Shown: positions 4,353 through 23,313 of the stretch, in pieces
Layout: each line of letters starts with the position of its first letter
How positions within the stretch are numbered: position 1 is the stretch's first letter
Made by a program: the position numbers and the translations under genes
The notes under the pieces: model-generated
What the model was told of the DNA's origin: nothing
Database searches by the model: none
What the model saw: the letters and a program-made list of their open reading frames with translations, nothing else
Assembly: GCF_035285525.1 (NCBI RefSeq)
Contig: NZ_JAYKGW010000081.1
Location: 1-25,965 of the forward strand
DNA: 25,965 nt
From: Okeania sp.
Lineage (GTDB): Bacteria > Cyanobacteriota > Cyanobacteriia > Cyanobacteriales > Microcoleaceae
Direction: 5' to 3'

Positions 4353-4395
4353 TAGTGGTAGTAGGAGGGCGATAGTCTTTCTACCTCATTTTGAT

Positions 4396-4972: not shown

Positions 4973-5014
4973 CGAGTTCATAGTCGTTATTCCATATTCC
5001 TCAAAAAAAAAATT

Positions 5015-6967: not shown

Positions 6968-6987
6968 TCTAACCAGAGAAAGATGAT

Positions 6988-7030: not shown

Positions 7031-7071
7031 AGTTATAGCGTCTATTCAGAGAAACAGGGATAATCACTTCA

Positions 7072-7178: not shown

Positions 7179-7249
7179 ATCCCCTGCTTACTTGCTAAAG
7201 GCGATCGCGACTTCCACCAACATCTTGAAAAACCATAGCATCAGATTTG

Positions 7250-7302
7250 CTGAAAAAAGCAGAGTTTTGAACCCACCCCTAACCCTTTTCAGGAGGGGAA
7301 AA
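7250..7302 (+). repeat. dispersed repeat family F (…AGTTTTGAACCCACCCCTAACCC.T.TCAGGAGGGGAAA)
   Basis: Matches the reverse complement of 8901-8951 with a few mismatches or indels. The two copies are in inverted orientation around the decayed 7.3-8.9 kb zone. Confidence 0.65.
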
Positions 7303-7569
7303 TAGAGAAAGTAGAAAGAATAAATGTTCCTTGATTTTTATATCCAACTCTTACCCAAAATCCTAATTTTTTGGTAGCTCAAGCTGGAAAAGTTACACTT
7401 TTTTTCACTCCTTAAAAGCACTTTTCTTGATCTGTAAATCTCAAAGTATTTACAGCTTTCTACTATATCATAATTCTACCTTATCGTCACTACTCTTCAG
7501 CCAATGCTATTGCCAAAGCTACTCCGTTGAAGTATAATTAATAATTTATTTAAAAATAAAAAAATTATT

Positions 7570-7674
7570 ATGACAACCGAACAAAAAATAGCTAATTTAT
7601 TTCAAATGACAGATGAAGTTTGGGCACGTTATGCTAATCCTTGGAGTGGATTAACTAGATTTTCTATATTACTT
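7570..7674 (+). pseudogene. N-terminal remnant of a small conserved membrane-protein gene, truncated by MITE insertions
   Basis: MTTEQKIANLFQMTDEVWARYANPWSGLTRFSILL resembles the (H/Y)ANPWS...TR N-terminus of a small membrane-protein family I recall as DUF6653 (uncertain). The reading frame runs straight into MITE C at 7675, MITE B follows at 7788, and no continuation is visible. Confidence 0.3.
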
Positions 7675-7763
7675 AGGACTTACGCAAAGGGACTATATAT
7701 AGCGTATCGGTGCGTGACACTGACGTTAACGCACCCTACTAATAGCGTTCATGCGTAAGTCCT
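7675..7763. mobile_element. MITE/SDR family C copy (89 bp), with AGGACTTACGCA ... TGCGTAAGTCCT termini
   Basis: Perfect 12-bp terminal inverted repeats at 7675-7686 and 7752-7763. TTACTT is present on both flanks (7669-7674 and 7765-7770). The same termini recur at 11088-11137, 17204-17243, 22924-22969 and 22981-23072 with different internal cargo. Confidence 0.7.
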
Positions 7764-7787
7764 GTTACTTTTAATTATTGTTTCTAT

Positions 7788-7905
7788 TAGACATCTCCAA
7801 AAATAAAAAATCAAATCAATTCTTATCCATAAATTATCAATTATTTCTTCCTGTTCCCAGTTAAGTGTTCTTAGTTAAGTGTTCCCTCTTGTCTGGAGAT
7901 GTCTA
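7788..7905 (+). mobile_element. MITE family B copy (118 bp), with TAGACATCTCCA ... TGGAGATGTCTA termini
   Basis: 12-bp perfect TIRs at 7788-7799 and 7894-7905. The internal sequence is roughly 80% identical by eye to the reverse complement of 22061-22181. Confidence 0.75.
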
Positions 7906-7946
7906 TTTGGATATGAACATATACTATATAACCGGATTCTATATCA

Positions 7947-8004
7947 GGGGCGGGTTTATGTAAATTCTAGAATAAGCATGAAAATTTCTGATCAAACCCG
8001 CCCC
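7947..8004. repeat. inverted repeat GGGGCGGGTTT ... AAACCCGCCCC (11-bp arms, 36-nt loop)
   Basis: Arms at 7947-7957 and 7994-8004 are perfectly complementary. It is immediately preceded by a fragment (7906-7946) related to MITE E at 21173-21272 (atgaacatatac / aaccggattctat). Confidence 0.55.
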
Positions 8005-8057
8005 TACCCTATGCACTATTTTAGCTGTGTTAATCCACTACTGAACTGATAACTGAA

Positions 8058-8821
8058 ATGATTTGTACCTCATCCAAACAACTGAACTTTGCAGAATTTA
8101 TTACCCAATATGGGGACAATACAAGCTATGAATTAATTGACGGAGAACTAAGAGATATGCAGCCTAATGGTGTTTACGAAGCTGTTGCTGGAAGTATTGC
8201 TGGTAGAATTTACAGCGCTTTTCAAATGAATGAACCACATCATCATCACCAAAATCTTGTAGGGACGTTTCGCTGCGCGACATGAAAAGCATTTTTGTTA
8301 TGCAACGTCCCTACTGTGGTTTACTGATTTCTCGGGAATCGTAATGAAAACCGCTGTATGTGGAAGTTTTTCGGAATAATTTCAACTGGTTGATTCCCAA
8401 AAATTCTGTGGTGCGGGCATCTTGCCCCCGTACTGTAGGTGAAATAACTGCCCTACGTCCTGATGTGATTGTTTTAGACAAATCAGAACTTATTAAAGAA
8501 CCTCTTTGGCAAAAAGAACCAGTAATTTGTAATGGTAATATTATTAAACTTGTCGCAGAAGTTGTTAGTAAAAATTGGCAAGATGATTATGCTATAAAAG
8601 TATAAGAATATGCTTTTTTAAATCTTTCAAAATATTGGATTGTGGATTTTATGGGGTTAGGTAGTTTACAATTTATTGGTAATCCTAAACAACCTACTTT
8701 TACAATTTTTCAGTTAGTTAATGGTGTGTATCAACAACAGCAATATCGTTTGGGAGAACCCATTTATTCCTATCTATTTCCTAATTGAAAATTGCGACTC
8801 GACGATATTATGCCAATTTAA
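8058..8821 (+). pseudogene. Uma2-family (DUF820, PF05685-type) endonuclease pseudogene, disrupted by a MITE and two in-frame stop codons
   Basis: N-part: MICTSSKQLNFAEFITQYGDNTSYELIDGELRDMQPNGVYEAVAGSIAGRIY. After the MITE the same protein continues from 8360: VEVFRNNFNWLIPKNSVV...ALRPDVIVLD...LVAEVVSKNWQDDYAIKV. It then hits TAA (8603-8605), continues EYAFLNLSKYWIVD...YRLGEPIYSYLFPN, hits TGA (8786-8788), and ends KLRLDDIMPI before TAA 8819-8821. The motifs PD-V, E-V-V-S, D-Y..K..EY...YWIVD are typical of Uma2. Confidence 0.75.
8211..8358 (+). mobile_element. MITE family A copy (148 bp) inserted in the Uma2 gene
   Basis: TIRs TACAGCGCTTTTCA ... TGAAAACCGCTGTA match at 13 of 14 positions. 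The central palindrome is split by about 40 extra nt (8259-8313). TA is present at both ends. Deleting 8213-8358 in silico restores the Uma2 reading frame. Confidence 0.8.
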
Positions 8822-8900
8822 AATACTGACTAATGTAAATATTTTTTGCTTTTTTCCTATCCCAAAATATGCTGTATATTTTTTCCCAAACCCCCCACAC

Positions 8901-8951
8901 TTTCCCTCCTGAGAGGGGTTAGGGGTGGGTCTCAAACTTGGCTTTGTTCAG
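8901..8951 (-). repeat. dispersed repeat family F, inverted copy
   Basis: tttccctcctgagaggggttaggggtgggtctcaaacttggctttgttcag is the reverse complement of the 7250-7302 type. Confidence 0.65.
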
Positions 8952-8990
8952 TAAACCCTAATTATTCATTATCAATTAATGAACTTACTG

Positions 8991-9006
8991 TCTATATTAA
9001 TATAGA
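8991..9006. promoter_or_regulatory. 16-bp perfect palindrome TCTATATTAATATAGA upstream of the kinase gene
   Basis: The sequence is perfectly self-complementary and ends 23 nt upstream of ATG 9030. It could be an operator or part of a promoter. It is AT-rich, so chance occurrence is not negligible. Confidence 0.25.
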
Positions 9007-9029
9007 GATAGTAGCCTAATCTTGTTAAT

Positions 9030-10997
9030 ATGAGTTATTGCCTCAATCCTCAATGCCAAAATCCTCAAAATCCTGAAGGGACATTATATTGCCTTGCCTG
9101 TGGAGCAAAATTGCTGCTGAGAGAAAGATATCGCCCTATGAAACCTATCGGTAGAGGTGGGTTTGGTCGGACTTTTCTGGCTGTAGATGAAGATAAACCT
9201 TCTCATCCCCCTTGTGTAATTAAACAATTTTTACCTCAACATACTGGGGACCCTAAAAAAGCTGCCGAGTTATTTCAACAAGAGGCAGTTAGATTAGATG
9301 AACTTGGTAAACATCCACAAATTCCTGAATTATTAGCTCACTTTGAACAGGATAATAATCAATATTTAGTACAAGAATTTATTGATGGTTCTAATTTAGC
9401 TGCAGAGTCAATTAAAAGGGGTCCTTTTAATAGTAATCAAATTAAACAAATTTTAAATGAATTATTACCAGTTTTACAATTTATTCACGAACATAAAGTA
9501 ATTCATCGAGACATTAAACCAGAAAATATTATTCGTCGTAATTCTCCTCCACAAGTTACTGGATGGATGAATAATACTAATCAATTAGTTTTAGTTGATT
9601 TTGGGGCAGCTAAAGTGATTACTGGAACTTCCTTAATGCAGCCAGGAACAATTATTGGTAGTCCGGAATATGTTGCTCCAGAACAGGTAAGAGGTCATGC
9701 AATTTTTGCCAGTGATATCTATAGTTTGGGAGTAACTTGTATCTATTTATTAACTCAAGTATCTCCTTTTGATTTATTTGACGTAATGAAAGATAAATGG
9801 GTATGGCGAGATTATTTAAGTCAACCTATTAATAGTGTTTTAGCCAGAATTATTGATAGGATGCTGGCCACTAATCCGCAAATGCGTTACCAGTCTGCGG
9901 CGGAAGTAATGAAGGAATTAAATCCACAACAGGAAACTCCTGTTCTCCCTAATATTCCGGCACCGACACCATCTCCAACTCCTATTCAACCAACTATATC
10001 CACATACACACCTCCGCAACCGCAAGCAAAACCAAAGACCAGTTCGATGACAGCACCGCCTCATATTGTGCAACCGACGGTTATTCCTCAACCAAAACGG
10101 TCAACTTGGAAATGTGTTTTGACTTTGACCGGACATTTTGACTCGGTGAATACGGTAGCGTTTAGTCCCAATGGAGAAATATTGGCGAGTGGGAGTCGCG
10201 ATAAAACTATTGAAATTTGGGATATGAAGAAAAGCAAACGTTGGTTTACTCTGACTGGTCATGGTGACTCTGTGCAAGCGGTCGCGTTTAGTCAAGATGG
10301 AGAAATGTTGGCGAGTGGGAGTCGGGATCAGACTATTGAAATTTGGGATATGAAGAAAGGCAAACGTTGGTTTACTCTGCTTGGTCATTCTGACTGGGTG
10401 GATACGGTGGCGTTTAGTCCGGATAGTCAAATGTTAGCAAGTGGAGGTAGAGATAAAACTATTGAAATTTGGAATTTGCGGAAAGCAAGGCGCTGGTTTA
10501 CTTTAAACGGGCATGACGATCGGGTTTATAGTGTTACTTTTAATCAAAATGGGGAATTTTTGGCAAGTGGTGGTCGCGACCAAACTATTAAAATATGGAG
10601 TTTGGAAAAGGGGAAAGAGTTATTTTCCATTAAGGGTCATTCTGACTGGGTGCGATCGCTAAGTTTTAGTCAAGATGGTAAGGGTTTGGCAAGTGGGAGT
10701 CGGGATGGCACGATTAAGTTATGGCAGGTTTATGGAGGGGAACTTATTTCCACACCTGTACAAAATTTGAAATATGGTATGAGTGATGTTTTATCGGTGA
10801 CGTTTAGTCCGAATGGCAAAATAGTTGCGGGTGGATATCGGAATGGGAATATTAATTTATGGGATGCTCTCACTGGGGAATTATTGGAAACATTGAATGG
10901 TCATAAGAGTGATGTGTTTTCAGTGATGTTTAGTCAGGATGGTAAGAGTTTAGCAAGTGGGAGTAATGATAAAACCATTAAAATTTGGCAACAGTGA
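9030..10997 (+). CDS. Ser/Thr protein kinase with N-terminal 4-Cys zinc ribbon and 7 C-terminal WD40 repeats
   Basis: CLNPQCQNPQNP...YCLACG zinc ribbon. Kinase motifs GRGGFGRTF, VIKQF, HRDIKPEN, DFG and SPEYVAPE are present. A Pro-rich linker (PNIPAPTPSPTPIQP...) follows, then seven GH...(ASG)S.D.TI.IW(D/N/S/Q) repeats. Confidence 0.9.
   Translation: MSYCLNPQCQNPQNPEGTLYCLACGAKLLLRERYRPMKPIGRGGFGRTFLAVDEDKPSHPPCVIKQFLPQHTGDPKKAAELFQQEAVRLDELGKHPQIPELLAHFEQDNNQYLVQEFIDGSNLAAESIKRGPFNSNQIKQILNELLPVLQFIHEHKVIHRDIKPENIIRRNSPPQVTGWMNNTNQLVLVDFGAAKVITGTSLMQPGTIIGSPEYVAPEQVRGHAIFASDIYSLGVTCIYLLTQVSPFDLFDVMKDKWVWRDYLSQPINSVLARIIDRMLATNPQMRYQSAAEVMKELNPQQETPVLPNIPAPTPSPTPIQPTISTYTPPQPQAKPKTSSMTAPPHIVQPTVIPQPKRSTWKCVLTLTGHFDSVNTVAFSPNGEILASGSRDKTIEIWDMKKSKRWFTLTGHGDSVQAVAFSQDGEMLASGSRDQTIEIWDMKKGKRWFTLLGHSDWVDTVAFSPDSQMLASGGRDKTIEIWNLRKARRWFTLNGHDDRVYSVTFNQNGEFLASGGRDQTIKIWSLEKGKELFSIKGHSDWVRSLSFSQDGKGLASGSRDGTIKLWQVYGGELISTPVQNLKYGMSDVLSVTFSPNGKIVAGGYRNGNINLWDALTGELLETLNGHKSDVFSVMFSQDGKSLASGSNDKTIKIWQQ
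10185..10436 (+). repeat. intragenic 126-bp tandem repeat (WD40 units 1-2 and 2-3)
   Basis: 10185-10262 and 10311-10388 differ at 6 of 78 positions by hand alignment. The following ~48 nt of each unit are much more diverged. Confidence 0.8.
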
Positions 10998-10999
10998 TA

Positions 11000-11023
11000 C
11001 AGTTATCAGTTATCAGTTATCAG
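11000..11023 (+). repeat. heptamer tandem repeat (CAGTTAT)x3 plus a partial unit, STRR-like
   Basis: Starts 2 nt after the kinase TGA (10995-10997). Related TAGTTAT/ATCAGTA heptamers occur at 17110-17144 and 14251-14264. Confidence 0.8.
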
Positions 11024-11047
11024 CAGTTTTCATTCTGGTAAACTACT

Positions 11048-11075
11048 GTAGGGATGTTCCATGGCACGTCCCTAC
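11048..11075. repeat. core palindrome of MITE family A (GTAGGGAtGTTCCATGGcACGTCCCTAC)
   Basis: Same 28-bp palindrome as 7121-7148 with 2 substitutions. A hairpin here could also act as a 3' structure for the kinase gene. Confidence 0.65.
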
Positions 11076-11087
11076 TAGATTATCATC

Positions 11088-11137
11088 AGGACTAAAGCCA
11101 CGCGAACCCAGAAACCGGGTTTCTTTGCGTAAGTCTT
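11088..11137. repeat. SDR family C-type unit enclosing the AGAAACCGGGTTTCT palindrome
   Basis: AGGACTaaaGCc ... CAGAAACCGGGTTTCTT ... TGCGTAAGTCtT. The termini are related to 7675-7763. Confidence 0.6.
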
Positions 11138-11147
11138 GATCGTATAA

Positions 11148-11189
11148 AATCCAGATAATTACTATATCTAAGTCATTGCGAAATGACTT
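11148..11189. repeat. dispersed repeat family G (AATCCaGATAATTAcTAT.. CTAAGTCATTGCG...)
   Basis: Shares aatcc(a/g)gataatta.tat..ctaagtcattgcg with 25721-25752. Here it closes as the palindrome AAGTCATT-gcga-AATGACTT (11170-11189). Confidence 0.6.
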
Positions 11190-11246
11190 TAATAGTTAAT
11201 GTTTATCCGAACATAATATTGTAGTTTTCATTATCAATACTCTTCA

Positions 11247-11274
11247 CTACTCCCTACTCTCTACTCCCTACTCC
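11247..11274 (+). repeat. heptamer tandem repeat (CTACTCC/T)x4, STRR-like
   Basis: Ends 4 nt from the cheB stop codon (11279-11281, minus strand). In cheB mRNA sense it reads GGAGTAG repeats. The same heptamer occurs at 19632-19652. Confidence 0.8.
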
Positions 11275-11278
11275 CTGA

Positions 11279-12397
11279 TTAATTATTAATTATCATAAGT
11301 AATTTCTGACTAATATCATTGATTGGCAAAATATATTGAGCAGCTCCCAAAACAATAGCTTCTTTAGGCATACCAAATATGATAGAAGTAGCCTCATTTT
11401 GAGCAATTGTCAATCCACCAGATTGAGCGATCGCCTGCATTCCATCTGCTCCATCTCGACCCATTCCTGTTAGTAAAACCCCTATAGAAGAGGAGCCATA
11501 AAATTTAGCAATTGAATTAAAAGTGACAGTAATTGAAGGGCGATGTCCTCCAATTGCTGGTGTTTTTGAACAGACAAATTTACCCCTATTATCTAATTCT
11601 AAATGATGCTTTTCAGGTGGGAAATAAATTACGCCAGCTTTTGGCAATTCTCCGGAAATAGCAATTTTTATTGGTAGTTGACATCCATTAGCTAACCAAT
11701 TTATTAAACCATTTAAAAATCCATTACTAATGTGTTGAACACAAATTATTGGTAGAGGAAAAGTTGAAGGTAAATTATGAAGAATAGTTTTTAAAGCTTG
11801 AGGACCACCAGTAGAAGCTCCGATTGCTAAGACTTTAATATTTTTGGCAGAACGAGGATATTTAAGTATAGTTTTAGGAGTATCTACAAGATAATTTTTA
11901 ACTAGCTTATCTTGTATATTTCTGATAAATAATTGTTGTTGACGTTCTTGGTTAATCTGCCGACGATGTAGGGTAAAAACTTTAACCCCAGAAAGAATTT
12001 TAATCTTATTAATTAATTCTTGCTTAATCGCATCATAATCTGAATTTAATCCAGTTTCTGGTTTAGGAAAAACATCAACAGCTCCTGCCTCTAAAAGTTG
12101 AAAAACATTTTCGGTATCATGTTCTTGAACGGAGTTGCTAATAACTAAAATTGGTCGTGGGTATTCGTGCATAACTTCCCTAGTAAATTCTAATCCATTC
12201 ATAAATGCCATGTGTAAATCAGTACAAATTACATCTGGCTCGATTTTTGGGATTAGTTTTAATGCCTCTAAACCATTTTGAGCTGTACCTACAACTTCAA
12301 TTTCTGGAGAGGTAGCAAAAATTCTTTTGAGAATTATTAAAGCTACTGGTGAATCATCAACAACTAATATTTTAATGACTTTTCTTTTCTTTGTCAT
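11279..12397 (-). CDS. cheB: chemotaxis response regulator protein-glutamate methylesterase/deamidase
   Basis: N-terminal receiver (ILVVDDS, phospho-acceptor context VICTDLHM). C-terminal CheB_methylest-type domain with the catalytic Ser in IGASTGGPQAL, His in CVQHI and Asp in TGMGRDGADG. 372 aa. Confidence 0.9.
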   Translation of the reverse strand: MTKKRKVIKILVVDDSPVALIILKRIFATSPEIEVVGTAQNGLEALKLIPKIEPDVICTDLHMAFMNGLEFTREVMHEYPRPILVISNSVQEHDTENVFQLLEAGAVDVFPKPETGLNSDYDAIKQELINKIKILSGVKVFTLHRRQINQERQQQLFIRNIQDKLVKNYLVDTPKTILKYPRSAKNIKVLAIGASTGGPQALKTILHNLPSTFPLPIICVQHISNGFLNGLINWLANGCQLPIKIAISGELPKAGVIYFPPEKHHLELDNRGKFVCSKTPAIGGHRPSITVTFNSIAKFYGSSSIGVLLTGMGRDGADGMQAIAQSGGLTIAQNEATSIIFGMPKEAIVLGAAQYILPINDISQKLLMIINN

Positions 12398-12444
12398 TTG
12401 ATTTATTCAGGAAGTAAGAAGTAAAAAGTAAAAAGGAATTTTTC

Positions 12445-12501
12445 GTAGGGGTTTGGAAACCAAACCCAAGTAAAAATCGGATTTGAAAAGCAAACCCCTA
12501 C
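12445..12501. repeat. GTAGGGGTTTG ... CAAACCCCTAC inverted repeat with a nested GGTTTGG-aaa-CCAAACC hairpin
   Basis: Outer arms at 12445-12455 and 12491-12501 are perfectly complementary, with an inner 8-bp stem at 12449-12467. It lies in the divergent cheB/MCP intergenic region and has the same motif as 4946-4972. Confidence 0.6.
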
Positions 12502-12729
12502 AATTTTTTTTAACTTACTTATTATATCAATTATACTATTAAATTAATCAAGTAGTTCCAGAGGAAATAAATATAGAATAGATGTTAGTATGCTGTAATA
12601 CTAACTTTTAGTTCTCCTTGGAGACTAATTTTTTCTTCCAGGGTAATGAGATAATGAGTTAATAATTTATAGCTGATAGCTAACGGCTGTTTGCGCAGCA
12701 TTACGCAGTAAACACTCACTAATAGATCA

Positions 12730-14172
12730 ATGAATCTTAGACAAGTTTTACCTGTAGGAGTAATCATAATTATTGCTACATTTGGAATTAGTAATATTTT
12801 TTCTCAAAGTAGTATTCGTACTTTGAAAGAATCTTCTGAATGGGTTGCTCATACCTATCAAGTTAAAAGTTTATTAAAAGGATTAGAAAAAACTTTAGTT
12901 GATGCAGAAACAGGACAACGGGGATTTATTTATTCTGGTCAAGGAAATTTCCTCGAACCATATAATTTAGCTCAACAAACAATTGATGATAATTTAGATG
13001 AACTTCAAGCTAAAATATCTGATAATCCTGAGCAATTAAAAAGATTGGCTAAAATTGCAGATCTAACAGAATCTAAAATATCAGAATTAAAAGAAACTAT
13101 AAAACTAAAAAGAGCTGGTGAAGAAAAAAAAGTAAGACAGTTAATATTATCTGGTTTAGGTAAACAGATAATGGATGAAATTAGACAAAAAATTGATGAG
13201 ATGATGGCAGTAGAAGACCAACTATTGAATGAAAGAAAAAAACAAGCAAAACAGGCTTTTCAGTTAGTCATAATTATTTCCTGGAGTAGCTTGATGATAG
13301 TTGTGATAGTAAGTATAATTATCATATTTTTGATTAATAAAATTGCTATTCAACCTATTAATATTATAGCTAATTTGATTGCTACTTCTACTAATGAAAT
13401 TTCTGCTACAGTCGAACAACAAGAACACACTGCTTTTGTACAAGCTAATTCTGTTCATACTACCACTAACAATATGGATGAGTTAGGAGCATTTTTTCGT
13501 CAGTCTTCCCAAGAAGCAAATGCAGCTAATAATACTGCTCAATTAGCTTTAGAAGCAGCAGAAAAAGGAAGCGATACTGTCTGTGAAACATTTGATGCTA
13601 TGAATAATTTAAAAGTAAAAGTAGAGGCGATCGCTCATCAAATTTTTAGATTAAATGATCAAATAAATCAAATTGGTCAAATTTCTCAAATGGTCAGTAA
13701 TTTAGCAAATCAAATAAATATGTTAGCTTTGAATGCGAAGGTAGAAGCGGTGCGTGATGGAGATAATACTCAAGGTTTTTCTGTTGTTGCTGCTGAAATT
13801 AAGAAATTGGCAATACAGAGTAAATTATCTGCGGAAAAAATCAGAATTTTAGTAGAGGAAATTCAAGATTCAATTCATGCAACAGTATTGGTAACTAAAG
13901 AAGGAATTAGAACTGTAGAATTGGGAATGAAAATAACAGATCAAACAACTGCATCTTTTTCTAGAATAACTAAGTCGGTAAATAATGTAGTTATTAATAA
14001 TCAACAAATTTATTTGAATATTCAACAGCAAGTTCATGGTATTAAACAAGTATTAGAAGCAATGGAAAATATTAATCAAGTAGCAAAGGAAACGGCATTA
14101 GGAATTGGTCAAACTCATTCAGGTGTGGAGAGTTTAAAGAAAGCAGCAGAAAAGTTGAAAAATATAGTATAG
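12730..14172 (+). CDS. methyl-accepting chemotaxis protein with a CHASE3-type periplasmic sensor and a divergent hairpin tip
   Basis: TM1 VLPVGVIIIIATFGI. CHASE3-like WVAHTYQVKSLLKGLEKTLVDAETGQRGFIYSGQGNFLEPYN. TM2 LVIIISWSSLMIVVIVSIIIIFLI. The MCP signalling domain reads NMLALNAKVEAVRDGDNTQGFSVVAAEIKKLA. 480 aa, collinear with the MCP at 19655-21106. Confidence 0.85.
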   Translation: MNLRQVLPVGVIIIIATFGISNIFSQSSIRTLKESSEWVAHTYQVKSLLKGLEKTLVDAETGQRGFIYSGQGNFLEPYNLAQQTIDDNLDELQAKISDNPEQLKRLAKIADLTESKISELKETIKLKRAGEEKKVRQLILSGLGKQIMDEIRQKIDEMMAVEDQLLNERKKQAKQAFQLVIIISWSSLMIVVIVSIIIIFLINKIAIQPINIIANLIATSTNEISATVEQQEHTAFVQANSVHTTTNNMDELGAFFRQSSQEANAANNTAQLALEAAEKGSDTVCETFDAMNNLKVKVEAIAHQIFRLNDQINQIGQISQMVSNLANQINMLALNAKVEAVRDGDNTQGFSVVAAEIKKLAIQSKLSAEKIRILVEEIQDSIHATVLVTKEGIRTVELGMKITDQTTASFSRITKSVNNVVINNQQIYLNIQQQVHGIKQVLEAMENINQVAKETALGIGQTHSGVESLKKAAEKLKNIV

Positions 14173-14238
14173 TTAATAATGAATAATTAATGAGTTTAAT
14201 TCTTCGGTCGTTAATTATTGAAAAGGAGCTTTAAAATT

Positions 14239-14421
14239 TAATCCTATTGATAACTAATAACTGAAAAAAGGGAATTGACAAAAAAAATTTGACATGATAC
14301 TATAAGCATAATGGAGAAGGTGCGCTCATATATACTATATTGAATTTATTTCAATTAGAAAGCTTTTTCTATGATTTCCTCATTTTTTTGAATATTTCTC
14401 TCTTCATTCCTTCTTCCTTCT
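14239..14421 (+). repeat. 183-bp direct repeat, copy 1
   Basis: Identical to 14481-14663 at 182 of 183 positions (g14306 versus a14548). Compared base by base by hand. Confidence 0.9.
14275..14303 (+). promoter_or_regulatory. near-consensus sigma70 promoter inside repeat copy 1
   Basis: TTGACA (14275-14280), a 17-nt spacer ending in the extended -10 TG (14295-14296), then TACTAT (14298-14303). ATG at 14311. Confidence 0.5.
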
Positions 14422-14480
14422 CAAACTCAAATAATCTCTGAGTAAGTTTAAACATTTATAAGTTTCCTCAACTATTTGTC

Positions 14481-14663
14481 TAATCCTATTGATAACTAAT
14501 AACTGAAAAAAGGGAATTGACAAAAAAAATTTGACATGATACTATAAACATAATGGAGAAGGTGCGCTCATATATACTATATTGAATTTATTTCAATTAG
14601 AAAGCTTTTTCTATGATTTCCTCATTTTTTTGAATATTTCTCTCTTCATTCCTTCTTCCTTCT
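14481..14663 (+). repeat. 183-bp direct repeat, copy 2
   Basis: See copy 1. It ends 13 nt before the cheA stop codon (14677-14679). Confidence 0.9.
14517..14545 (+). promoter_or_regulatory. near-consensus sigma70 promoter inside repeat copy 2, pointing into the 3' end of cheA
   Basis: TTGACA (14517-14522), 17 nt with TG at 14537-14538, then TACTAT (14540-14545). Confidence 0.5.
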
Positions 14664-14676
14664 TATTTCCTCCTTC

Positions 14677-17094
14677 CTAAACTAATCTTTTTAAAGTTTC
14701 TAAAAGAACTTCTTGATTAAAATTATCTTTAGGAATGTAAGCATTAGCTCCTAATTCTGCACCTTTTTGTTTATCTTGATTAGAGGATAAAGATGTTACT
14801 AAAATAATAGGTAATTCACTATATTTTTTATTCTCTCTAATTTTAGAAGTTAAACTAAAACCATCCAAATTAGGCATTTGTACATCAGAAACTACTGCAT
14901 CAACAGAGCGAGTTTGTAACTTATTAAAAGCATCTAATCCATCAATTGCCGTAATAACTTCATAACCAGCACTTTCCAAAATTCTTTTCTCTTGAGTTCT
15001 GGTAGAAATAGAATCTTCTGCTAATAAAATTACAGATTTTTTATTAATTATTTCAACTTCTGCTAATTTATTACTTGACTCCTGAATAAATTGAGAAGTA
15101 TTAATAGATGTAGATATTTTCCGCGCTGACTTAAGCAAATCTTGAGGATTTAAAACCATACAAACATCACCAGTACCAAGAATAGTTGCACCAGCAATAT
15201 TTCTCACCCGTTTCAATAATTTACTTTGGGGTTTAAGTACAACATCTTGCTCATCAATTAAACTATCAACAAATAATCCTAATTTTTCATTTCCTACTTT
15301 TAAAATAATGCAAGGTTTCTCTATTTCATTAGCAACTTTCTCCTGATTAATAACTGAAACTTCTAGCAAATCTGCAAGTTGAGCAACAGATACTGGTTCA
15401 TTATTAAAAATAATAGTATCCCTACCTTCAATAGTAAAAATTGATGCTGTAGAAACTATGAAAGTTGTTTTAACAGACTCAACTGGCAAAGCATAATAAG
15501 TATTTTCAATTCCTACAATTAATACATTTATTGTAGCGAGGGAAGCACTTAATACTACTTTGATAGAACATCCTTTTTTGGGCTGAGATTCTATAGAAAT
15601 ATTTCCTTTTAATTCTTCTACATTTGTCTTAACTACATCTAAACCGACACCTCTACCAGAAACTTCAGTAACAAATTTTTTAGTAGAAAATCCAGGGGTA
15701 AAAATTAGAGATTGAATTTGTATTTGTGTCATATACTCTAATTCATATTCATTACAAATACCCTGTTTTATTGCTGTTTTAGTAATTTCGTTAATATCTA
15801 AACCCCGACCATCATCTATCACTTCAATTATTACATTAGTTGCAGTATTATATGCTCTTAATTTAATTGTAGCGACTTCTGATTTTCCTAACTTTTTACG
15901 TTCTTCAGGTGTTTCAATTCCATGATCTATAGCATTACGAATTATGTGCATTAAAGGGTCTTTCATCTGTTCAATAATTCGCTTATCTGCTTTAGTATTT
16001 CCCCCTTCAATTATTAGTTCTACTTTTTTACCTTCTTGTCTAGCTAAATCTCTGACAACTCGGGGGAACATATTAAAAATAGTAGATAAAGGTAGCATTC
16101 GCAGAGTACGAACTCCCATTTCTATTTCATTACTAATTAAGTCAAGTTTAGCCACATCTTCATAGATGGAATTTCTGAGATTATTAATTAATAGCCCTAG
16201 CTTTTCTAGTTGTTCTTCGGCTCGATGATGATAACTTTGTAATTGTTTAATTGAGTAATCATTAATAGTGGTGCTATTACTAACATTTATATCATGGATA
16301 ATAAAGCGATTTCTAAACGTATCTCTACTCCAGTCTTCCCACAAATTTGCGATTTCTTCTATTTTTGCTACTCGGTGAGCAAGTCGAATTTGAGTGACAG
16401 TTAATTCCCCAGTTTGAGTCATCAAAGAATCTAAATTTCGAGTCGGTACGCGGACTGTTTCAATATGGTAAGAATTTGATGAAGTATGGGAAGATTGAAT
16501 GCTAAGATTAGTTTCATTTTTAGTGAGAGATAAAGCTGATTTAGAAGTTATTTTTTCTTTATTGTCTGGAGCTTTTTCTGCTGTTGTTTCTAATTCTATA
16601 TTTGAGGATGATAAATCATTTTCATTGATTTTTTCTGCTTCTACAGAAGTATAATTAATAGTATTTTCTTGAGGATTTGAATTAGTTTTATTTTCTGTTT
16701 TTGATTGGGGATTAAGATTTTTAGCACCCATCAAATTTGCTAAGACATGAACAGTATTAATACCTGATGGTTCTCCAGTAACTGCCTCTTGTACAAGTTT
16801 ATAAATAGCATCTAATCCAAGTGAAAGGCGATCGCTTATTTCTGGAGAGATAGTTTTTTCTCCTCGTTTAATTTCTCCTAATAAATGTTCTATTTGATGA
16901 GCAATTTGAGATACATCTCTAACTCCTAACATTCCAGCATCACCTTTTAAACTGTGAGCTTCTCGTAATAATTCTTCTAATTTTTCTAAGTCTTTTGGAT
17001 ATTTTTCTAAGTATAAAAAACCTTCCTCAAGCTTTTGGATATGTTCTTCGCTTGCTGTTTGAAATACTTCCCGAAGTTCAGCATCTTCAATCAT
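14677..17094 (-). CDS. cheA: hybrid chemotaxis histidine kinase CheA (Hpt, long dimerisation region, HATPase, CheW-like P5, C-terminal receiver)
   Basis: Hpt with EAHSLKGDAGMLG. Low-complexity N/S/T/E linker. Dimerisation helix TVRVPTRNLDSLMTQTGELTVTQ. N box HIIRNAIDHGIE, G1 DDGRGLD, G2 GRGVGLDVV. CheW-like NVLIVGIENTYYALPVESV...GATILGTGDVCMVLN. REC ILLAEDS...VVSDVQMPNLDG...AYIPK. 805 aa. Confidence 0.9.
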   Translation of the reverse strand: MIEDAELREVFQTASEEHIQKLEEGFLYLEKYPKDLEKLEELLREAHSLKGDAGMLGVRDVSQIAHQIEHLLGEIKRGEKTISPEISDRLSLGLDAIYKLVQEAVTGEPSGINTVHVLANLMGAKNLNPQSKTENKTNSNPQENTINYTSVEAEKINENDLSSSNIELETTAEKAPDNKEKITSKSALSLTKNETNLSIQSSHTSSNSYHIETVRVPTRNLDSLMTQTGELTVTQIRLAHRVAKIEEIANLWEDWSRDTFRNRFIIHDINVSNSTTINDYSIKQLQSYHHRAEEQLEKLGLLINNLRNSIYEDVAKLDLISNEIEMGVRTLRMLPLSTIFNMFPRVVRDLARQEGKKVELIIEGGNTKADKRIIEQMKDPLMHIIRNAIDHGIETPEERKKLGKSEVATIKLRAYNTATNVIIEVIDDGRGLDINEITKTAIKQGICNEYELEYMTQIQIQSLIFTPGFSTKKFVTEVSGRGVGLDVVKTNVEELKGNISIESQPKKGCSIKVVLSASLATINVLIVGIENTYYALPVESVKTTFIVSTASIFTIEGRDTIIFNNEPVSVAQLADLLEVSVINQEKVANEIEKPCIILKVGNEKLGLFVDSLIDEQDVVLKPQSKLLKRVRNIAGATILGTGDVCMVLNPQDLLKSARKISTSINTSQFIQESSNKLAEVEIINKKSVILLAEDSISTRTQEKRILESAGYEVITAIDGLDAFNKLQTRSVDAVVSDVQMPNLDGFSLTSKIRENKKYSELPIILVTSLSSNQDKQKGAELGANAYIPKDNFNQEVLLETLKRLV

Positions 17095-17109
17095 AATTAG
17101 TTATAAATT

Positions 17110-17144
17110 ATTAGTTATATATTATTAGTTATTAGTTATCAGTA
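17110..17144 (+). repeat. heptamer tandem repeat (ATTAGTT-type, 5 units), STRR-like
   Basis: attagtt atatatt attagtt attagtt atcagta, located 16 nt upstream (in gene sense) of the cheA start codon. Confidence 0.7.
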
Positions 17145-17203
17145 AGACTGACGCCAAGCAACCAAAAAACTGGGTTTATTGTCGTGATATTGCTGATAAA
17201 TTC

Positions 17204-17243
17204 AGGAACTTTCCGCAAAGAAACCCGGTTTCTGCGTAAGTCC
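17204..17243. repeat. SDR family C-type unit enclosing the AGAAACCCGGTTTCT palindrome
   Basis: AGGAACTTtCcGCA-AAGAAACCCGGTTTCT-GCGTAAGTCCc, related to 11088-11137 and 7675-7763. Confidence 0.6.
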
Positions 17244-17292
17244 CGATCGGTTATTATTTTGAGTGCATCTCATATTCCCAAAAATACTTTTT

Positions 17293-17383
17293 TTCCTATT
17301 CCTTATTTCCTATTTCCTATTCCTTATTTCCTATTTCCTATTCCCTTTTTCCTGTTACCTGTTCCCTATTCTCTGTTCCCTAT
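17293..17383 (+). repeat. heptamer tandem array, 13 units of TTCCTAT/TCCTTAT/TCCCTAT type
   Basis: Ends 1 nt before the stop codon (17385-17387) of the Cache-MCP. In mRNA sense it reads AUAGGAA/AUAGGGA repeats. This array explains the spurious ORF 17184-17570 (FPIPYFLFPIPYFLFPIP). Confidence 0.85.
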
Positions 17384-17384
17384 T

Positions 17385-19280
17385 TTAAACTATAGTTTTA
17401 AGTTTAAGTGCTGCTTCATAAAGTTTTTGAGTATTAGTTGTAACTTGGGAAATTCCCTGAGCTGTTTCCGCAACACCATAGTTAAGATTATTCATAGATT
17501 TAATCACCTTTTGAATAGCAACTTTTTGCTGTTCAGTATTATGATAAATTTCCTGATTACTAGCAAATAAATCAGAGACAACTGCTGTTAAATTTTGAAA
17601 AGTATTAGCAGTTTCTTGAGCTGTTTTAATAGTAGCATCTACTGTATTTTTGCCTTCATTTGTTACCTTTATATTAGAGTTAATTGCGGTTTTAATTTCT
17701 GGCACAATAGCATTAATTTTTTTTGCAGCTTCAGAACTTTTATCTGCTAATTTCCGAATTTCTTTAGCAACAACAGCAAATCCAGCACCTTCCTCTCCAG
17801 CTCGTATAGCTTCGACTGCAGCATTTAAAGCTAAAATATTAGTTTGCATTGCTAAAGAACTTACTAAATTTGCTAAAGCAGAAATATTACCAATTTGACT
17901 TGTTTGTTCACCAAGTTCCTGATTTTGTTGAGTAATACTATTAACAGTTTCTCTCAAATTATGCATTTGGGCAAAAGTTTTTTCTACCATTTTATTACCT
18001 TCTTCAGCTAAAGTTAAAGCTTTACTTGCTGCTACTGCAACTGATTCTGCTTTTTGAGATATTTCTTGAGAAGCTTGACCTAGAGTAGTAATATTATTAT
18101 TAGTTTCATTTGCCACTAATGACTGTTCAGATGTAATCTTTTCTTGGTGATTCATTGTAGACAGTATATTATGGGAAAAATTAGATACATTATTAATCAT
18201 ATTTCTGACTATTTTAGCTATATTAATTATATTCAACCACCCAATAGATAAAAAAGTTATTAGGGATAAAAATACAACTATCAAGGCAATATTTCTAAAA
18301 TTGTTTACTGTAGCAAATACAATTTTGTTCGGCAAATCATAAACTATAACTAAAAAGTTATTAGCATGGCTTTGTCCTAAAAGAATAGTGTTGTAAGCAA
18401 TCACCATATCTACATCATTAACAATGTAACTTTGACCTCCAGATAAAATTTGATTAGTTACTTTTTCTGAATAATATTTTTGAATTTTTTCATCCCTATT
18501 TAATTCAAAACCCCATTCTCTTTCTGCTTCAGGATGAGATAAATAGTAACCATCTTGATTAATAATAAAAGCTGTACCAAAATTGCTTTTGTTGTCTTCT
18601 TTTATTTGTTGGAAAACACGCTCAACTAGCAAGTTGCCAATTATTATTCCTTTTTGTTTACCATCGGTGGCAAAAATAGGAGTAGCATATCTAATTGTTG
18701 GTTTGTAGGGAACTTCTATTTTTCCTCTTTCGCGATTAAGATTCAAAGGCGAAACATAGACTTCACCAAAGTTAAGTTTCATTGTTTCTATAAAATAGTC
18801 TCGATTTGCTTTATTTTGTAATTGTTTTTTAGGAATAGTTTCGATAATCAATCCATCAGAATCTACCCTTACCATTTCATTGCCATTTTCATCTAAATAA
18901 CGTAACTGCATATAGTATGGTTTCCCTTGCATAAATGCTGTAAATATTGCGCTTAATCTTTCTACCCAAATATCATAAGTAGAATTATCTTTTGGGTCTA
19001 TTCCTGTGTTATTTCTAGCTCTAACAATTCCTTGAATTGGCGGTACTTTACTAATAAATAAAATATCAGAACTAATACTTTTTAAGTAGTTAACAATTTG
19101 TTCTGTACTATCATTGACTTTAGCTTGAAGATTACTTTTAGCCAAATCCTGTAAAGCATTGGTAGCAGTATTAATACTATAACCACCTACTATTAATAAA
19201 GGAATAATCATACTAAAAAATAGAACTATAATAATTTTATATTGTATTTTTATCAAAACATTATTAATCATATTTAACAT
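17385..19280 (-). CDS. methyl-accepting chemotaxis protein with a large Cache-type periplasmic sensor
   Basis: TM1 [19 protein letters not shown]. The ~290-aa periplasmic region ([12 protein letters not shown]...[19 protein letters not shown]...[29 protein letters not shown]...) has a double-Cache look. TM2 [19 protein letters not shown]. Signalling tip [33 protein letters not shown]. The exact start is ambiguous because of several nearby ATGs. Confidence 0.85.
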
Positions 19281-19317
19281 ATAAGTAGTCCTGCAAAATT
19301 AATTTCCTAGTATAAAT

Positions 19318-19376
19318 AGGGAACACTTAATTGGGAACAGGACATAAGGGAAAAGAATTGATGATTTTTTCATAAT
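19318..19376 (-). mobile_element. internal fragment of MITE family B
   Basis: agggaacacttaattgggaacagg...aagaattgatgatttt..cataat aligns with 22080-22150. Neither TIR is present. Confidence 0.5.
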
Positions 19377-19631
19377 AGCAGATATAATATAATGTGTAAT
19401 TAGAGCTTGCTAATTAAATTTCAAAGCATTTAGAGATATAGATTTGAACAATTTTAGGTGCTGATTTCTTGGGAACCATAAAAGTACCAGTTTTTCGGTT
19501 GATGGAGGGGAAAAAGTGAACCTAAATGGAGTAATTATGACAGAAAAATTAAGGAGGAATTCGCAGTTGATTTCTAGTTTTTGAATTATTTCAACCTATT
19601 TAAGATTGCTATAATTCTTTCTTCCTATTTC

Positions 19632-19652
19632 CTACTCCCTACTCCCTACTCC
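19632..19652 (+). repeat. heptamer tandem repeat (CTACTCC)x3, STRR-like
   Basis: Ends 2 nt before the stop codon (19655-19657) of the MCP at 19655-21106. It is the same heptamer as behind cheB. Confidence 0.8.
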
Positions 19653-19654
19653 CT

Positions 19655-21106
19655 TCATACAATAGACTTTAACTCTGTACTAACTTCATTAAGCTTTTGA
19701 ATCCCTTGTTGAGTTTGTCCTAAACCAGTTGCTGTTTCTTGTGCTCCAGTATTTAATTCATTCATGGCATCCACTACTTGCTTAATAGCGATCGCTTGTT
19801 GTTTAATATTAAGAGAAATTTGCTGATTATTTAATACCACATTATTAATTGCCTCTTTAACACCATTAAAAGTTGTCGCTGTTTGTTGAGCAATTTTCAC
19901 TCCTAATTCGACATTTTTTGTTCCTGCTTCTGTTGCCATAACTGTAGAATTAATTGATGTTTGAATATCAGAAACTAAGGTATAAATTTTTTCTGCAGAC
20001 TTTCTACTTTCATCAGCTAATTTACGAATTTCACTAGCAACCACACCAAAACCTTTACCATATTCTCCAGCACGAACCGCTTCTACTGCTGCATTTAAAG
20101 CCAACATATTAGTTTGATTAGCTAAGTCACTAACAAGCTGAGAAATATTACCAATTTGATTTGTTTGTTCACTTAAACGAGTAATTTGTTGAGCGATCGC
20201 CTCTACTTTTTCACTCAAAGATGCCATACTTTCTAAACTTGTATCTACCGCTTCTGTTCCTTCTTCAGCTAAACTTAAAGCTTGTTTAGCTGCTGTTGCT
20301 CCGGCTTCTGCTTGTTCTGCTGTTGCTTGAGAAGAAGCACCTAATTCATCCATAGTTGTAGTAGTTTCATTTACAGAGGTAGCTTGTTGAGCAGCAGTAC
20401 GTTCTTGTTCATTTATTGTCTCAGAAATTCCTGTAGAAAAAGCGACTATATTTTCAGTTATTGTTTTGATTTTTTGACTAAAATTACCTGTAATTAACAA
20501 TGCCATCATTATGACAATAACTATCAACAATATCGAACCTATACTGAGTAACCATAACAATATAATTAGATTTTTTTTAGTTTGTTCTGTTTCTGTTTCT
20601 AGTAGCTCTCTCTCTCCAGTTATAAGTTCATTACTTAATCTGTCAAATTCATCTAGTAATTGTTGACCTTGTAAAGTATTAAATAAAGCCACAGCTTCAG
20701 TTTGTTTACCATCTTTTACCAATTGAATAACTTGATCTGCAAAATATTTAAAATCATTTTTATCTTGCTCCATTTCTTGTAAAATTTTTTTGTATTCATC
20801 AATACTAATTGATTCCTTAAGAGACTGAATATTTGCATCTAAGGAGTTTGAAGCTTGATTATATTCGTTAATAAATATACCGTTTCGACTAGCTAGATAA
20901 CTAAGAAAATTACTAACTATTTTTTCTTCATTTAATGTCATCTTATTTATATCGAGAACTAAAGTTTGTACTCTAGCAACTTCTTTTAAAGTATCAAATA
21001 CTTTATTAGCAGTTCTATAAACTATTCCTCCTAATCCTAGAAATAAAATTACTGGCACTATATATCCTAATAAGAAAATGTTTCTGAATGTTATTTTTTT
21101 CCACAT
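19655..21106 (-). CDS. methyl-accepting chemotaxis protein with a helical (4HB-type) periplasmic sensor
   Basis: TM1 IFLLGYIVPVILFLGLGGIV. ~150-aa helical periplasmic region. TM2 LIILLWLLSIGSILLIVIVIMMALLI. Canonical tip [33 protein letters not shown]. 483 aa. Confidence 0.85.
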   Translation of the reverse strand: MWKKITFRNIFLLGYIVPVILFLGLGGIVYRTANKVFDTLKEVARVQTLVLDINKMTLNEEKIVSNFLSYLASRNGIFINEYNQASNSLDANIQSLKESISIDEYKKILQEMEQDKNDFKYFADQVIQLVKDGKQTEAVALFNTLQGQQLLDEFDRLSNELITGERELLETETEQTKKNLIILLWLLSIGSILLIVIVIMMALLITGNFSQKIKTITENIVAFSTGISETINEQERTAAQQATSVNETTTTMDELGASSQATAEQAEAGATAAKQALSLAEEGTEAVDTSLESMASLSEKVEAIAQQITRLSEQTNQIGNISQLVSDLANQTNMLALNAAVEAVRAGEYGKGFGVVASEIRKLADESRKSAEKIYTLVSDIQTSINSTVMATEAGTKNVELGVKIAQQTATTFNGVKEAINNVVLNNQQISLNIKQQAIAIKQVVDAMNELNTGAQETATGLGQTQQGIQKLNEVSTELKSIV

Positions 21107-21172
21107 AAATTTTTTCTTTTGTCCTTAATTAGTTAATTAGAATTTGCTGATTAAATATAAAGTAAGCATTCA

Positions 21173-21272
21173 TATATAATCCGGTTACAAGTGTATATGT
21201 TCATAATTTTATCTACACTTCAATCTCCTCATCTCCCACAACTATATAACGAGTATTCAACCGGATTTTATG
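21173..21272. mobile_element. MITE family E copy (TATATAATCCGGTT ... AACCGGATTTTATG termini)
   Basis: Imperfect inverted termini at 21173-21186 and 21259-21272. The internal gtgtatatgttcat recurs inverted at 7911-7922. TATAGAATCCGG-type ends also occur at 4903-4915, 7931-7946 and 25716-25730. Confidence 0.55.
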
Positions 21273-22060
21273 TCAGATCAGCAGTCAGCTGCGTCGGCTA
21301 TTATGTGCGCAATAAAATCTTTATAAATATTGCTCCCAAACCAGATTTCTTTGAACTTAAATATTGATTCATTTAAACACTATTTAAGACCGAACAATTT
21401 TGTTGCTGTTGGCGCTGCATTCCACAGAAAATGCTGACAATATCAAAACATTGATAGATCAAAAATTAGCTTTTTTTTAAGGTGTAAAAAAGTCTGCTTG
21501 TTTGACCTATTTAGAATCAAGAAAGTTACAGCGGATTCCACCAGAAGTGAGGTACGCCTACGGGAGCAAGATGTCCGCACTGAAAATAGTTTATTATTAA
21601 CATCTGTACTTGATATACTTGGAATCTGCTGTAGGATTTTTGGCAACAGTTGGGCAACAAAATTTACCTAAAAATCAAGGTATAAAACCTCTCCATTTAT
21701 GGAGAAAAAAGAAAAAAATTCATTTTCACCAATCCTCTTTTTTATAAGAAAAAATAATTATAACATTTCCCAGGTTATTCAGCAATTAACAATGAAAAAA
21801 TTAATAATTACCCTTTCTTAAAAGAAGGGGATTAACTAAAAGGAATTTTTTTTATTTATCCCCTGAAAAGGGGAGGCCTCCAGGTGTGAATTGTTAAATC
21901 AATAATTATCGACTATAAACTCTTGATTGTTAATTATTAACTATTAATTTTTTGGTAAGGTATAGTTCTGGATATATTCTCTAGCCTTGAAAGGGGGGCA
22001 CTGAAAGTTATCCTTAAAAAGGAGGAGCATTAATGTACCTCACCAGCTTGAAAAATGCTA

Positions 22061-22181
22061 TATTAATTATTAGACATCTCCATAAAAGAGGGAACGCTTA
22101 ACTGGGAAAAGGGAGCAGAAAGAAAGAATTGATAATTTATGGATAATAATTGATTGGAGCTTTTATTTTTAGAGATGTCTA
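22061..22181 (-). mobile_element. MITE family B copy (121 bp)
   Basis: TAGACATCTCCA (22061-22072) ... AGAGATGTCTA (22171-22181). The interior is the reverse complement of the 7788-7905 copy. It ends 14 nt from the queC stop codon. Confidence 0.75.
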
Positions 22182-22195
22182 TTAATTATTAATTA

Positions 22196-22980: not shown

Positions 22981-23072
22981 AGGACTGACCCAGGGGAACC
23001 CAGAAACCCGGTACGAGGGTAGATGTTTATTGTCAAAAACAATGATTTACTTTCTTAACCGGGTTTCTTTGC
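22981..23072. repeat. SDR family C-type unit carrying the 4492-4557 cargo
   Basis: AGGACTgAC ... CAGAAACCCGGT ... agatgtttattgtcaaaaacaatgatttac ... ACCGGGTTTCTTTGCGTAAGcCCT. Confidence 0.6.
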
Positions 23073-23313
23073 GTAAGCCCTGTGTTATGATATATATTTA
23101 TGACTAAAATAGCAACATCTAAGCAATGACCACAGCTTTCATTCTGTGAAGCATCCAGAAAGATGTCAAAAAAAAGTATATCATATACTTAATTTATGAT
23201 AAATTGATGTATGTAGCTATACATAATTTTTTTTTATTCAACACTAAAAGTATGATATATCAACCCAGTTTCTACAAATATAAGGTTTGCTGAATAAGCC
23301 TCTTAGTGAGGCA

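Follow-up and report, generated by a model that had tools for sequence, protein, structure and literature searches.

The window analyzed here is a complete 25,965-bp contig from a metagenome-assembled genome (MAG) of Okeania sp. (TaxID 3100323; Oscillatoriales/Microcoleaceae), and it carries a block of five chemosensory (che) genes encoding three methyl-accepting chemotaxis proteins (MCPs), a hybrid CheA kinase, and a CheB methylesterase. We judge, with a probability of roughly 0.8, that this block is the intact receptor-kinase-esterase core of a methylation-adapting pathway of filamentous gliding cyanobacteria, and that the genes for its TPR-bearing CheR methyltransferase (cheR-TPR) and its two-domain CheW (cheW-cheW) lie on another contig of the same assembly. 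One system encoded at two or more loci is the simplest reading. Counted per assembly, the parts list of the Che pathway is complete, with CheR and the two-domain CheW both found off the window contig. An initial annotation of this DNA had framed the cluster as incomplete and atypically organized. What stands of that framing is the absence of cheR, cheW, and a receiver (REC) gene from the contig; what falls is the atypicality, since the inverted MCP gene is conserved in relatives and cyanobacterial clusters with cheB and cheR have been reported before. The annotation had also implied a host among the Nostocales, which the assignment to Okeania corrects.

The chemosensory genes of the window

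The five genes, each confirmed by Pfam at the coordinates and on the strand first proposed for it, are the following.

11279-12397, minus strand: cheB (receiver plus methylesterase/deamidase), 372 aa; Pfam Response_reg and CheB_methylest, E=1.8e-58; GenBank MEB3340669.1
12730-14172, plus strand: mcp with a CHASE3 periplasmic sensor, 480 aa; Pfam CHASE3 and MCPsignal; GenBank MEB3340670.1
14677-17094, minus strand: cheA hybrid kinase, 805 aa; Pfam Hpt, H-kinase_dim (weak), HATPase_c, CheW, and Response_reg; GenBank MEB3340671.1
17385-19280, minus strand: mcp with a dCache_1 periplasmic sensor, 631 aa; Pfam dCache_1, HK_sensor_dom_bact, and MCPsignal; GenBank MEB3340672.1
19655-21106, minus strand: mcp with a 4HB_MCP_1/CHASE3 helical periplasmic sensor (MCP483), 483 aa, the first gene of the block; assigned by Pfam

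The cheA gene is convergent with the plus-strand CHASE3-MCP gene, from which cheB is divergent. The CheA protein is 100% identical to MEB3340671.1 / WP_324236089.1, and the window genes belong to the GenBank series MEB3340668-674, with a protein kinase (668) and QueC (674) at its ends. Pfam analysis of the ORFs of the whole contig revealed no CheR, CheW, CheY/REC, or PatA-type gene, and tblastn searches of the window with the CheR-TPR, CheW-CheW, REC, and PAS/GAF histidine kinase (PAS/GAF-HK) proteins of relatives returned no remnants at E<=10. These two results uphold the earlier observation that the window is without a CheR, CheW, CheY, or PatA-type regulator. Because the che block sits in the middle of the contig, the absence of cheR, cheW, and REC is not an effect of the contig ends.

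Components encoded elsewhere in the assembly

A search with the CheW-CheW protein of Okeania SIO3I5 recovered a 361-aa CheW-CheW (P0130; MEB3341569.1 / WP_324236995.1), annotated as "chemotaxis protein CheW," on a contig of 27,242 bp, and a 516-aa CheR-TPR (P0271; MEB3341568.1 / WP_324236994.1), annotated as "CheR family methyltransferase," is likewise on a 27,242-bp contig. The two proteins have consecutive accessions and share their TaxID and accession series with the genes of the window; we take their genes to be adjacent on the basis of the consecutive GenBank numbers and the identical contig size. In eight relatives, the orthologues of this pair stand immediately before the block. Identities to the relatives are 81/81/77/70% for CheA, 84/80/78% for CheB, 77/76/69/68% for CheW-CheW, and 72-73/68/62% for CheR, and all four proteins rank the relatives congruently, with SIO3I5/Dapis closest, Trichodesmium next, and MAG08/KiyG1 most distant.

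In the initial annotation, two options had been put forward, a module that borrows CheR and CheW from elsewhere and a deamidase-only adaptation system, along with a suggestion to look for cheR and cheW genome-wide. That look located, on a different contig of the assembly, MEB3341568.1 and MEB3341569.1, a CheR-TPR and a CheW-CheW encoded by neighboring genes, which favors the first option. Deamidase-only adaptation is not supported, because a cognate CheR is encoded in the assembly.

Alternatively, the pathway could be a reduced one without any dedicated CheR or CheW, in which CheB would serve only as a deamidase, the receptors would contact CheA directly through its P5 domain, the output would be the fused REC, and the off-contig cheR and cheW would belong to a different system. 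This proposal draws on the absence of cheR, cheW, and REC genes within 10 kb on either side, on the Gln pairs of the receptors, and on the possession by CheA of a REC domain of its own. We find it very improbable, however, given that the off-contig CheR-TPR and CheW-CheW are specific orthologues of block-linked genes with congruent divergence, that the linkage of cheB and cheR is conserved across the family, and that we found in the assembly no other CheA of this lineage for the pair to serve. Among the close clusters found, none contributed a second such CheA from this assembly, and no CheA match was located on a 27,242-bp contig.

Conservation and rearrangement of the cluster in relatives

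Eight related loci were compared, from Okeania SIO3I5, SIO3B5, and KiyG1, Dapis BLCC M126 and M172, Trichodesmium MAG_R03, Microcoleaceae MO_207.B10, and a tar-biofilm MAG. Wherever their sequence reaches, all eight follow the order cheR-TPR, cheW-cheW, one to four mcp genes, cheA-REC, (inverted CHASE3-mcp), and cheB, with a cheR-TPR product of about 517 aa and a long CheW of 346-366 aa that holds two CheW domains. This is the synteny comparison that the initial annotation had called for, and it shows a block shared by eight relatives and preceded in them by cheR-TPR and cheW-cheW. The inverted CHASE3-mcp is also present in Dapis M126 and Okeania KiyG1, and we therefore consider it a conserved feature of the lineage. 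The window genes are 77-86% identical to those of the relatives at the nucleotide or protein level, and the dCache-MCP and MCP483 are 79% and 80% identical, respectively, to their Dapis orthologues; the Dapis orthologue of MCP483 directly follows cheW-cheW. Homology to the relatives stops close to position 21139, which is 33 nt ahead of the first mcp, and, at the other end, close to position 11298, within the variable C-terminal tail of CheB. What is peculiar to the window contig is only the lack of cheR, cheW-cheW, and REC.

Beyond cheB, a divergent gene for a single-domain REC protein of 120-126 aa is found in three relatives (Dapis M126, Trichodesmium, and KiyG1), followed by a PAS-PAS-GAF-HisKA-HATPase kinase gene in Dapis M126 and Trichodesmium, whose loci were read that far. 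Because a stand-alone REC follows cheB in three relatives and a PAS/GAF kinase is present in two, the output is unlikely to run through the fused REC of CheA alone. We had considered the downstream PAS/GAF kinases of Dapis and Microcoleus as orthologues, but they share just 28% identity and are alike at the level of domain type only. This likeness is no firm evidence that the linkage of a PAS/GAF-HK to the cluster is conserved.

The isolate genome of Microcoleus sp. FACHB-68 offers a second example of the system split over two loci. There, the gene for the orthologous CheA, which is 57% identical, is part of a cheA-cheB-PAS/GAF-HK locus directly downstream of ribosomal protein, rpoA, and prfA genes (10001-19515 of the retrieved stretch), no cheR, cheW, or mcp occurs within 10 kb of that locus, and its CheR-TPR and CheW-CheW are encoded on a different contig of 967,674 bp. 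Gene order varies in other ways as well. The genes of Coleofasciculus PCC 7420 run dCache-mcp, cheA (1395 aa), cheB, cheR (without TPR), and cheW-cheW; in Okeania KiyG1, an IS605-family (OrfB/TnpB) element and a kinase/FGE-sulfatase gene separate cheA from the CHASE3-mcp and cheB. The interruption of the KiyG1 cluster by an IS605-family element indicates that rearrangement in the Okeania lineage is real. We therefore view gene order in the family, which is hosted by Okeania, Dapis, Trichodesmium, Microcoleus, Kamptonema, Coleofasciculus, and other filamentous gliding genera, as fluid, and the window as one more variant.

Several KiyG1 genes are fragmented, with cheR in four ORF pieces and cheW-cheW and the dCache-mcp in two each (2838-9498 and 12695-17612 of the KiyG1 stretch), which reflects either pseudogenization or frameshift errors of assembly.

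Integrity of CheB and CheA and the composition of the block

CheB can be aligned over its length with two known CheB structures, 6YMZ and 1A2O, and is 84% identical to Dapis CheB. As the initial annotation had held, its catalytic and receiver residues are intact; Asp60 of the receiver, Ser195 (GASTGG), His222 (VQHI), and Asp315 (GMGRDG) are all present in the alignment. In CheA, His47 (HSLKG) is preserved, as are the receiver residue Asp737 and the N, G1, F, and G2 boxes. Its domains are ordered Hpt, extended P3, HATPase, P5/CheW-like, and C-terminal REC, with no P2, and the core requirements of a CheA are present in the Hpt histidine, the dimerization domain, the HATPase boxes, and the CheW-like P5 domain. 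In an alignment to Thermotoga maritima CheA (1B3Q/3JA6), a stretch of about 65 aa within the P3 hairpin (residues 244-310) finds no counterpart, such that P3 spans about 122 aa compared with about 60 in T. maritima. Residues ~110-210, where P2 would stand, form a low-complexity linker rich in Asn, Ser, Thr, and Glu.

These features bear on whether the block could be a decaying or recently imported low-GC remnant on its way to pseudogenization. The GC content of the block is about 30% versus about 42% in the left flank, and the third-position GC of the che genes is 0.14-0.17 versus 0.24-0.37 in the flanking genes. Furthermore, the flanks hold degraded Uma2 and DUF6653 fragments and many repeats, and the cluster appears fragmented in KiyG1. 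We give this idea almost no credence, however. None of the five ORFs is truncated, no catalytic motif is damaged, and the two losses that had been named as signs of decay, that of the CheB triad and that of the ATP-binding residues of CheA, have not occurred. The five ORFs are thus predicted to be a working gene set rather than a decaying one.

Low GC is also a property of the family. In every relative, GC is 28-34% across the whole cluster, cheR and cheW-cheW included, as against 40-45% in the housekeeping genes next to it. Recent horizontal transfer was rejected as the source of the low GC for this reason, since a cluster that is equally AT-rich in all relatives is not a recent import; weak codon selection and an ancient foreign origin are both possibilities. 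The window contains no integrase or transposase, and carriage on a plasmid was dismissed, as no plasmid match exceeded 31% identity.

Receptors and methylation sites

All three MCPs contain PF00015 and two transmembrane segments, lack HAMP, and have about 20 heptads per arm of the signaling hairpin, whose tip motifs are EAVRAGE, EAIRAGE, and EAVRDGD. They have an identical C-terminal arm of 135 aa and end in K-(S/T/N)-I-V. Sites that match the methylation consensus and contain Gln pairs occur in two of the three. MCP483 has four methylation-like sites (TINEQERT at residue 230, TAAQQATS at 237, ATAEQAEA at 261, and TGAQETAT at 453), of which the one at 453 mirrors the one at 237 about the hairpin tip, and the CHASE3-MCP has one (TVEQQEHT at residue 227). 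The Gln pair in TAAQQATS, to which the initial annotation had drawn attention, is real and lies at residue 237 of the 483-aa MCP.

Borders of the block and the possibility of a mis-join

Both borders of the block are rich in repeats, and a third repeat region separates the CHASE3-MCP gene from cheA. The features are listed here; none is assigned a strand.

21107-22195: upstream border, repeat-rich non-coding DNA at the place where relatives have cheW-cheW and cheR-TPR; no ORF >67 aa
10998-11278: downstream border, a heptamer tandem and a small palindromic dispersed repeat; repeat families D6, D8, D15, and I5
14239-14421 and 14481-14663: 183-nt direct repeat in two copies, 99% identical, with a 242-nt period, in the spacer between the convergent CHASE3-MCP and cheA genes; repeat family D5

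The palindromic dispersed repeat of about 40 nt (core AAACCGGGTTTCTTTGCGTAA) has three intergenic copies, at 11098-11138, 17211-17237, and 22990-23082, the first of which is at the downstream border of the block. A second repeat, about 75-120 nt long, is found at 22063-22184, at 7785-7858, and in the intergenic DNA of KiyG1. The Logan contigs built from the same reads (SRR19514071) agree with the window at 100% identity; one of them (L008) ends at 11111, inside the palindromic copy, and L008 and L001 break at the 183-nt duplication.

It follows that the arrangement in the window has to be weighed against an artefact of assembly or binning, in which the block would really be contiguous with cheR-TPR/cheW-cheW and with REC/PAS-GAF-HK and would have been mis-joined at repeats on both sides. 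The repeat families at the two borders have further copies in the window, and the cluster is contiguous in all eight relatives. However, this scenario requires two independent mis-joins on one contig, at repeats that are just ~40-120 nt long and diverged (74-93% identity). In addition, a split system exists in the isolate genome of FACHB-68, and the IS605-family insertion in KiyG1 shows that rearrangement is real. We therefore consider a mis-join improbable. The functional conclusion holds with or without one, because the genome encodes cheR-TPR and cheW-cheW in either case.

Several observations weigh against our interpretation of a core whose partners lie on another contig. The junctions of the block run through dispersed repeats at which the Logan contigs break, leaving the junctions unspanned, a point that also favors a mis-join. 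The genome is a MAG, such that the two contigs could derive from two co-occurring strains, and on the 27,242-bp contig only cheR-TPR and cheW-cheW are known. The dCache-MCP has no strict methylation consensus site, though it shares its signaling module with the other two receptors. Finally, deletion of a cheB/cheAWR/MCP locus in Nostoc punctiforme left hormogonium differentiation, motility, and phototaxis unaffected, according to a passage of PMC5913679 that cites Campbell et al. 2015; that locus is likened to the window by description only.

Some further repeats were noted around the block. A 74-nt inverted pair (7785-7858/22111-22184, 88% complementary) brackets the kinase-WD40 gene and the che block. 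Its family resembles miniature inverted-repeat transposable elements and has intergenic copies in KiyG1, also upstream of cheR (22063-22180 versus KiyG1 2585-2690 and 7332-7364). An inversion between these repeats was rejected as the explanation of the split; because both arms are inside the window, reversing it would not bring cheW beside the block. A breakpoint within the 3' end of cheB was also ruled out, as the C-terminal tail of CheB is variable in KiyG1 too. Each che gene on the minus strand has heptanucleotide tandem repeats immediately past its stop codon (11233-11276, 14638-14679, 17278-17382, and 19607-19662); on the coding strand the repeats read GGGAGTA or AGGAAAT, and they resemble the short tandemly repeated repetitive (STRR) sequences of cyanobacteria. 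Each copy of the 183-nt repeat holds a promoter-like match, TTGACA-17-TACTAT. Promoter and terminator scans of the window gave counts equal to those in shuffled sequence and so carry no information in DNA this rich in AT, and Rfam gave no matches in the window.

Proposed mechanism

The model that we propose for the split system is built by homology to characterized Che pathways. The 4HB/CHASE3, dCache_1, and CHASE3 periplasmic sensors of the HAMP-less, two-transmembrane receptors would bind ligands, and CheW-CheW together with the P5 domain of CheA would join the receptors in arrays. CheA would autophosphorylate on His47 and pass the phosphate to its fused C-terminal REC, acting as a sink or relay, and to Asp60 of the CheB receiver. 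The phosphate would probably also reach a stand-alone CheY-like REC of the kind encoded past cheB in three relatives, and this protein may in addition be a substrate of the neighboring PAS/GAF kinase, thereby integrating signals. Phospho-CheB would deamidate the Gln pairs and demethylate the receptors, and CheR-TPR would remethylate them, resulting in adaptation. At the cellular level, the pathway could steer pilus-based gliding or aggregation, or it could serve a function unrelated to motility.

Significance of the cluster

As a discovery, the window carries little weight, in that its "incomplete" look vanishes once the genome and its relatives are considered. It does hold a lesson for annotation, namely that the completeness of a Che pathway should be judged per genome rather than per locus, above all in fragmented MAGs. 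The synteny map also provides a defined gene set consisting of cheR-TPR, cheW-cheW, one to four mcp genes, cheA-REC, cheB, REC, and a PAS/GAF-HK.

The family is conserved in ecologically important N2-fixing cyanobacteria that form blooms or mats, including Trichodesmium, Okeania, and Dapis. Because it combines periplasmic chemoreceptor domains with full methylation adaptation, it is a plausible means by which chemicals could control gliding or aggregation, or a system whose output may lie outside motility. Going further, one might speculate that the whole family is an uncharacterized pathway of true chemical sensing in these colony- and mat-forming marine cyanobacteria, with its output reaching gliding reversals or aggregation by way of a CheY-like REC that it shares with a PAS/GAF kinase, a suggestion that we regard as doubtful, though worth stating. 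On that view, the split in this MAG and in Microcoleus would mean that the receptor-kinase-esterase and CheR/CheW modules operate in trans.

Neighboring genes

The other ORFs of the window encode PPC-domain and VWA/cadherin proteins, Uma2 and DUF6653 fragments, a Ser/Thr kinase-WD40 protein, QueC, and a glycogen debranching enzyme. None of them is che-related, in agreement with the earlier description of the flanking genes (kinase-WD40 and queC) as unrelated. Large secreted or surface proteins occupy the left end (124-6967). The one at 918-4352 has PPC-domain repeats and a Por_Secre_tail-like domain, and the one at 5015-6967 is an integrin-beta-like VWA protein that carries cadherin-like/Big_9 repeats. 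The stretch from 7000 to 9000 is gene-poor and has the appearance of degraded genes, with fragments of a Uma2-family endonuclease at 8058-8605 and of DUF6653 at 7570-7758 and with internal repeats (7072-7163 versus 8211-8329).

Comparison with known systems

The chemotaxis-like systems that act on type IV pili are Pix and Tax in Synechocystis and Hmp, Ptx, and Pix in N. punctiforme. The window system resembles them in its cyanobacterial host and in a CheA that has a C-terminal REC, no P2, and a long dimerization domain. Features of their own are upstream genes for PatA-type (PATAN-REC) and CheY-like proteins, a single CheW, receptors with TPR or GAF/cyanobacteriochrome domains, and the lack of cheB and cheR, whereas the window system has cheB, cheR-TPR, and periplasmic chemoreceptor domains. 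No PATAN regulator was found in the window or in the cluster of any relative.

The initial annotation had also suggested a pathway like Wsp, the type of operon in the class of alternative cellular functions (ACF) that in Pseudomonas comprises WspA-F plus WspR. With respect to the parts list, this suggestion holds, as both systems comprise a membrane-bound MCP, two CheW domains, a CheR extended at its C terminus, a CheB, and a CheA-REC hybrid that lacks P2. The likeness extends weakly to the CheW domains of P0130, the N-terminal of which best matches WspB-like and the C-terminal WspD-like proteins. In contrast, identity to our Wsp comparator, the MCP-CheW-CheR-CheW-CheA-REC-CheB-PleD operon of Mesorhizobium ciceri pMESCI01, is only 27% for CheA, 34% for CheB, and 26% for CheR, and no REC-GGDEF output gene is present in the window or in any of 10 related loci. 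Here the CheW domains are fused, several dCache/CHASE3 periplasmic receptors are present, and the dimerization domain of CheA is extended. We consider the Wsp-likeness to be a probable case of resemblance rather than membership. Hints as to class conflict, since CheR-TPR points to ACF (PMC3447774) and the long dimerization domain to type IV pilus (Tfp) systems, having been ascribed to the cyanobacterial Tfp-class CheAs (PMC10782961).

The closest likeness in content is to cyanobacterial clusters that have cheB and cheR, which, like the window system, combine MCPs without photosensory domains with CheA, CheW, CheB, and CheR (often CheR-TPR) and have no PatA-type gene (PMC2853384, PMC3447774, PMC2829493). 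Two che clusters with cheB and cheR in Arthrospira platensis NIES-39 (A07840-A07910 and H00230-H00290) were noted in 2010 as unlike the Synechocystis-type loci (PMC2853384), CheR-TPR genes in cyanobacterial che clusters, mainly ACF-type and including N. punctiforme B2J4R2, were catalogued in 2012 (PMC3447774), and T. erythraeum has been counted among the genomes with CheA, B, R, W, and Y (PMC2829493). The Arthrospira and Nostoc loci are set beside the window by description, not by sequence; complete clusters with direct orthologues of the window genes are those of Trichodesmium, Dapis, Okeania, Microcoleus, and Coleofasciculus. The MAG differs from the cheB/cheR clusters in that cheR-TPR and cheW-cheW are off the contig and cheB is followed by neither a REC nor a PAS/GAF kinase. 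Thus, the cheB/cheR family of cyanobacterial che clusters was already known from genomes, and the window adds to it a member with a split arrangement.

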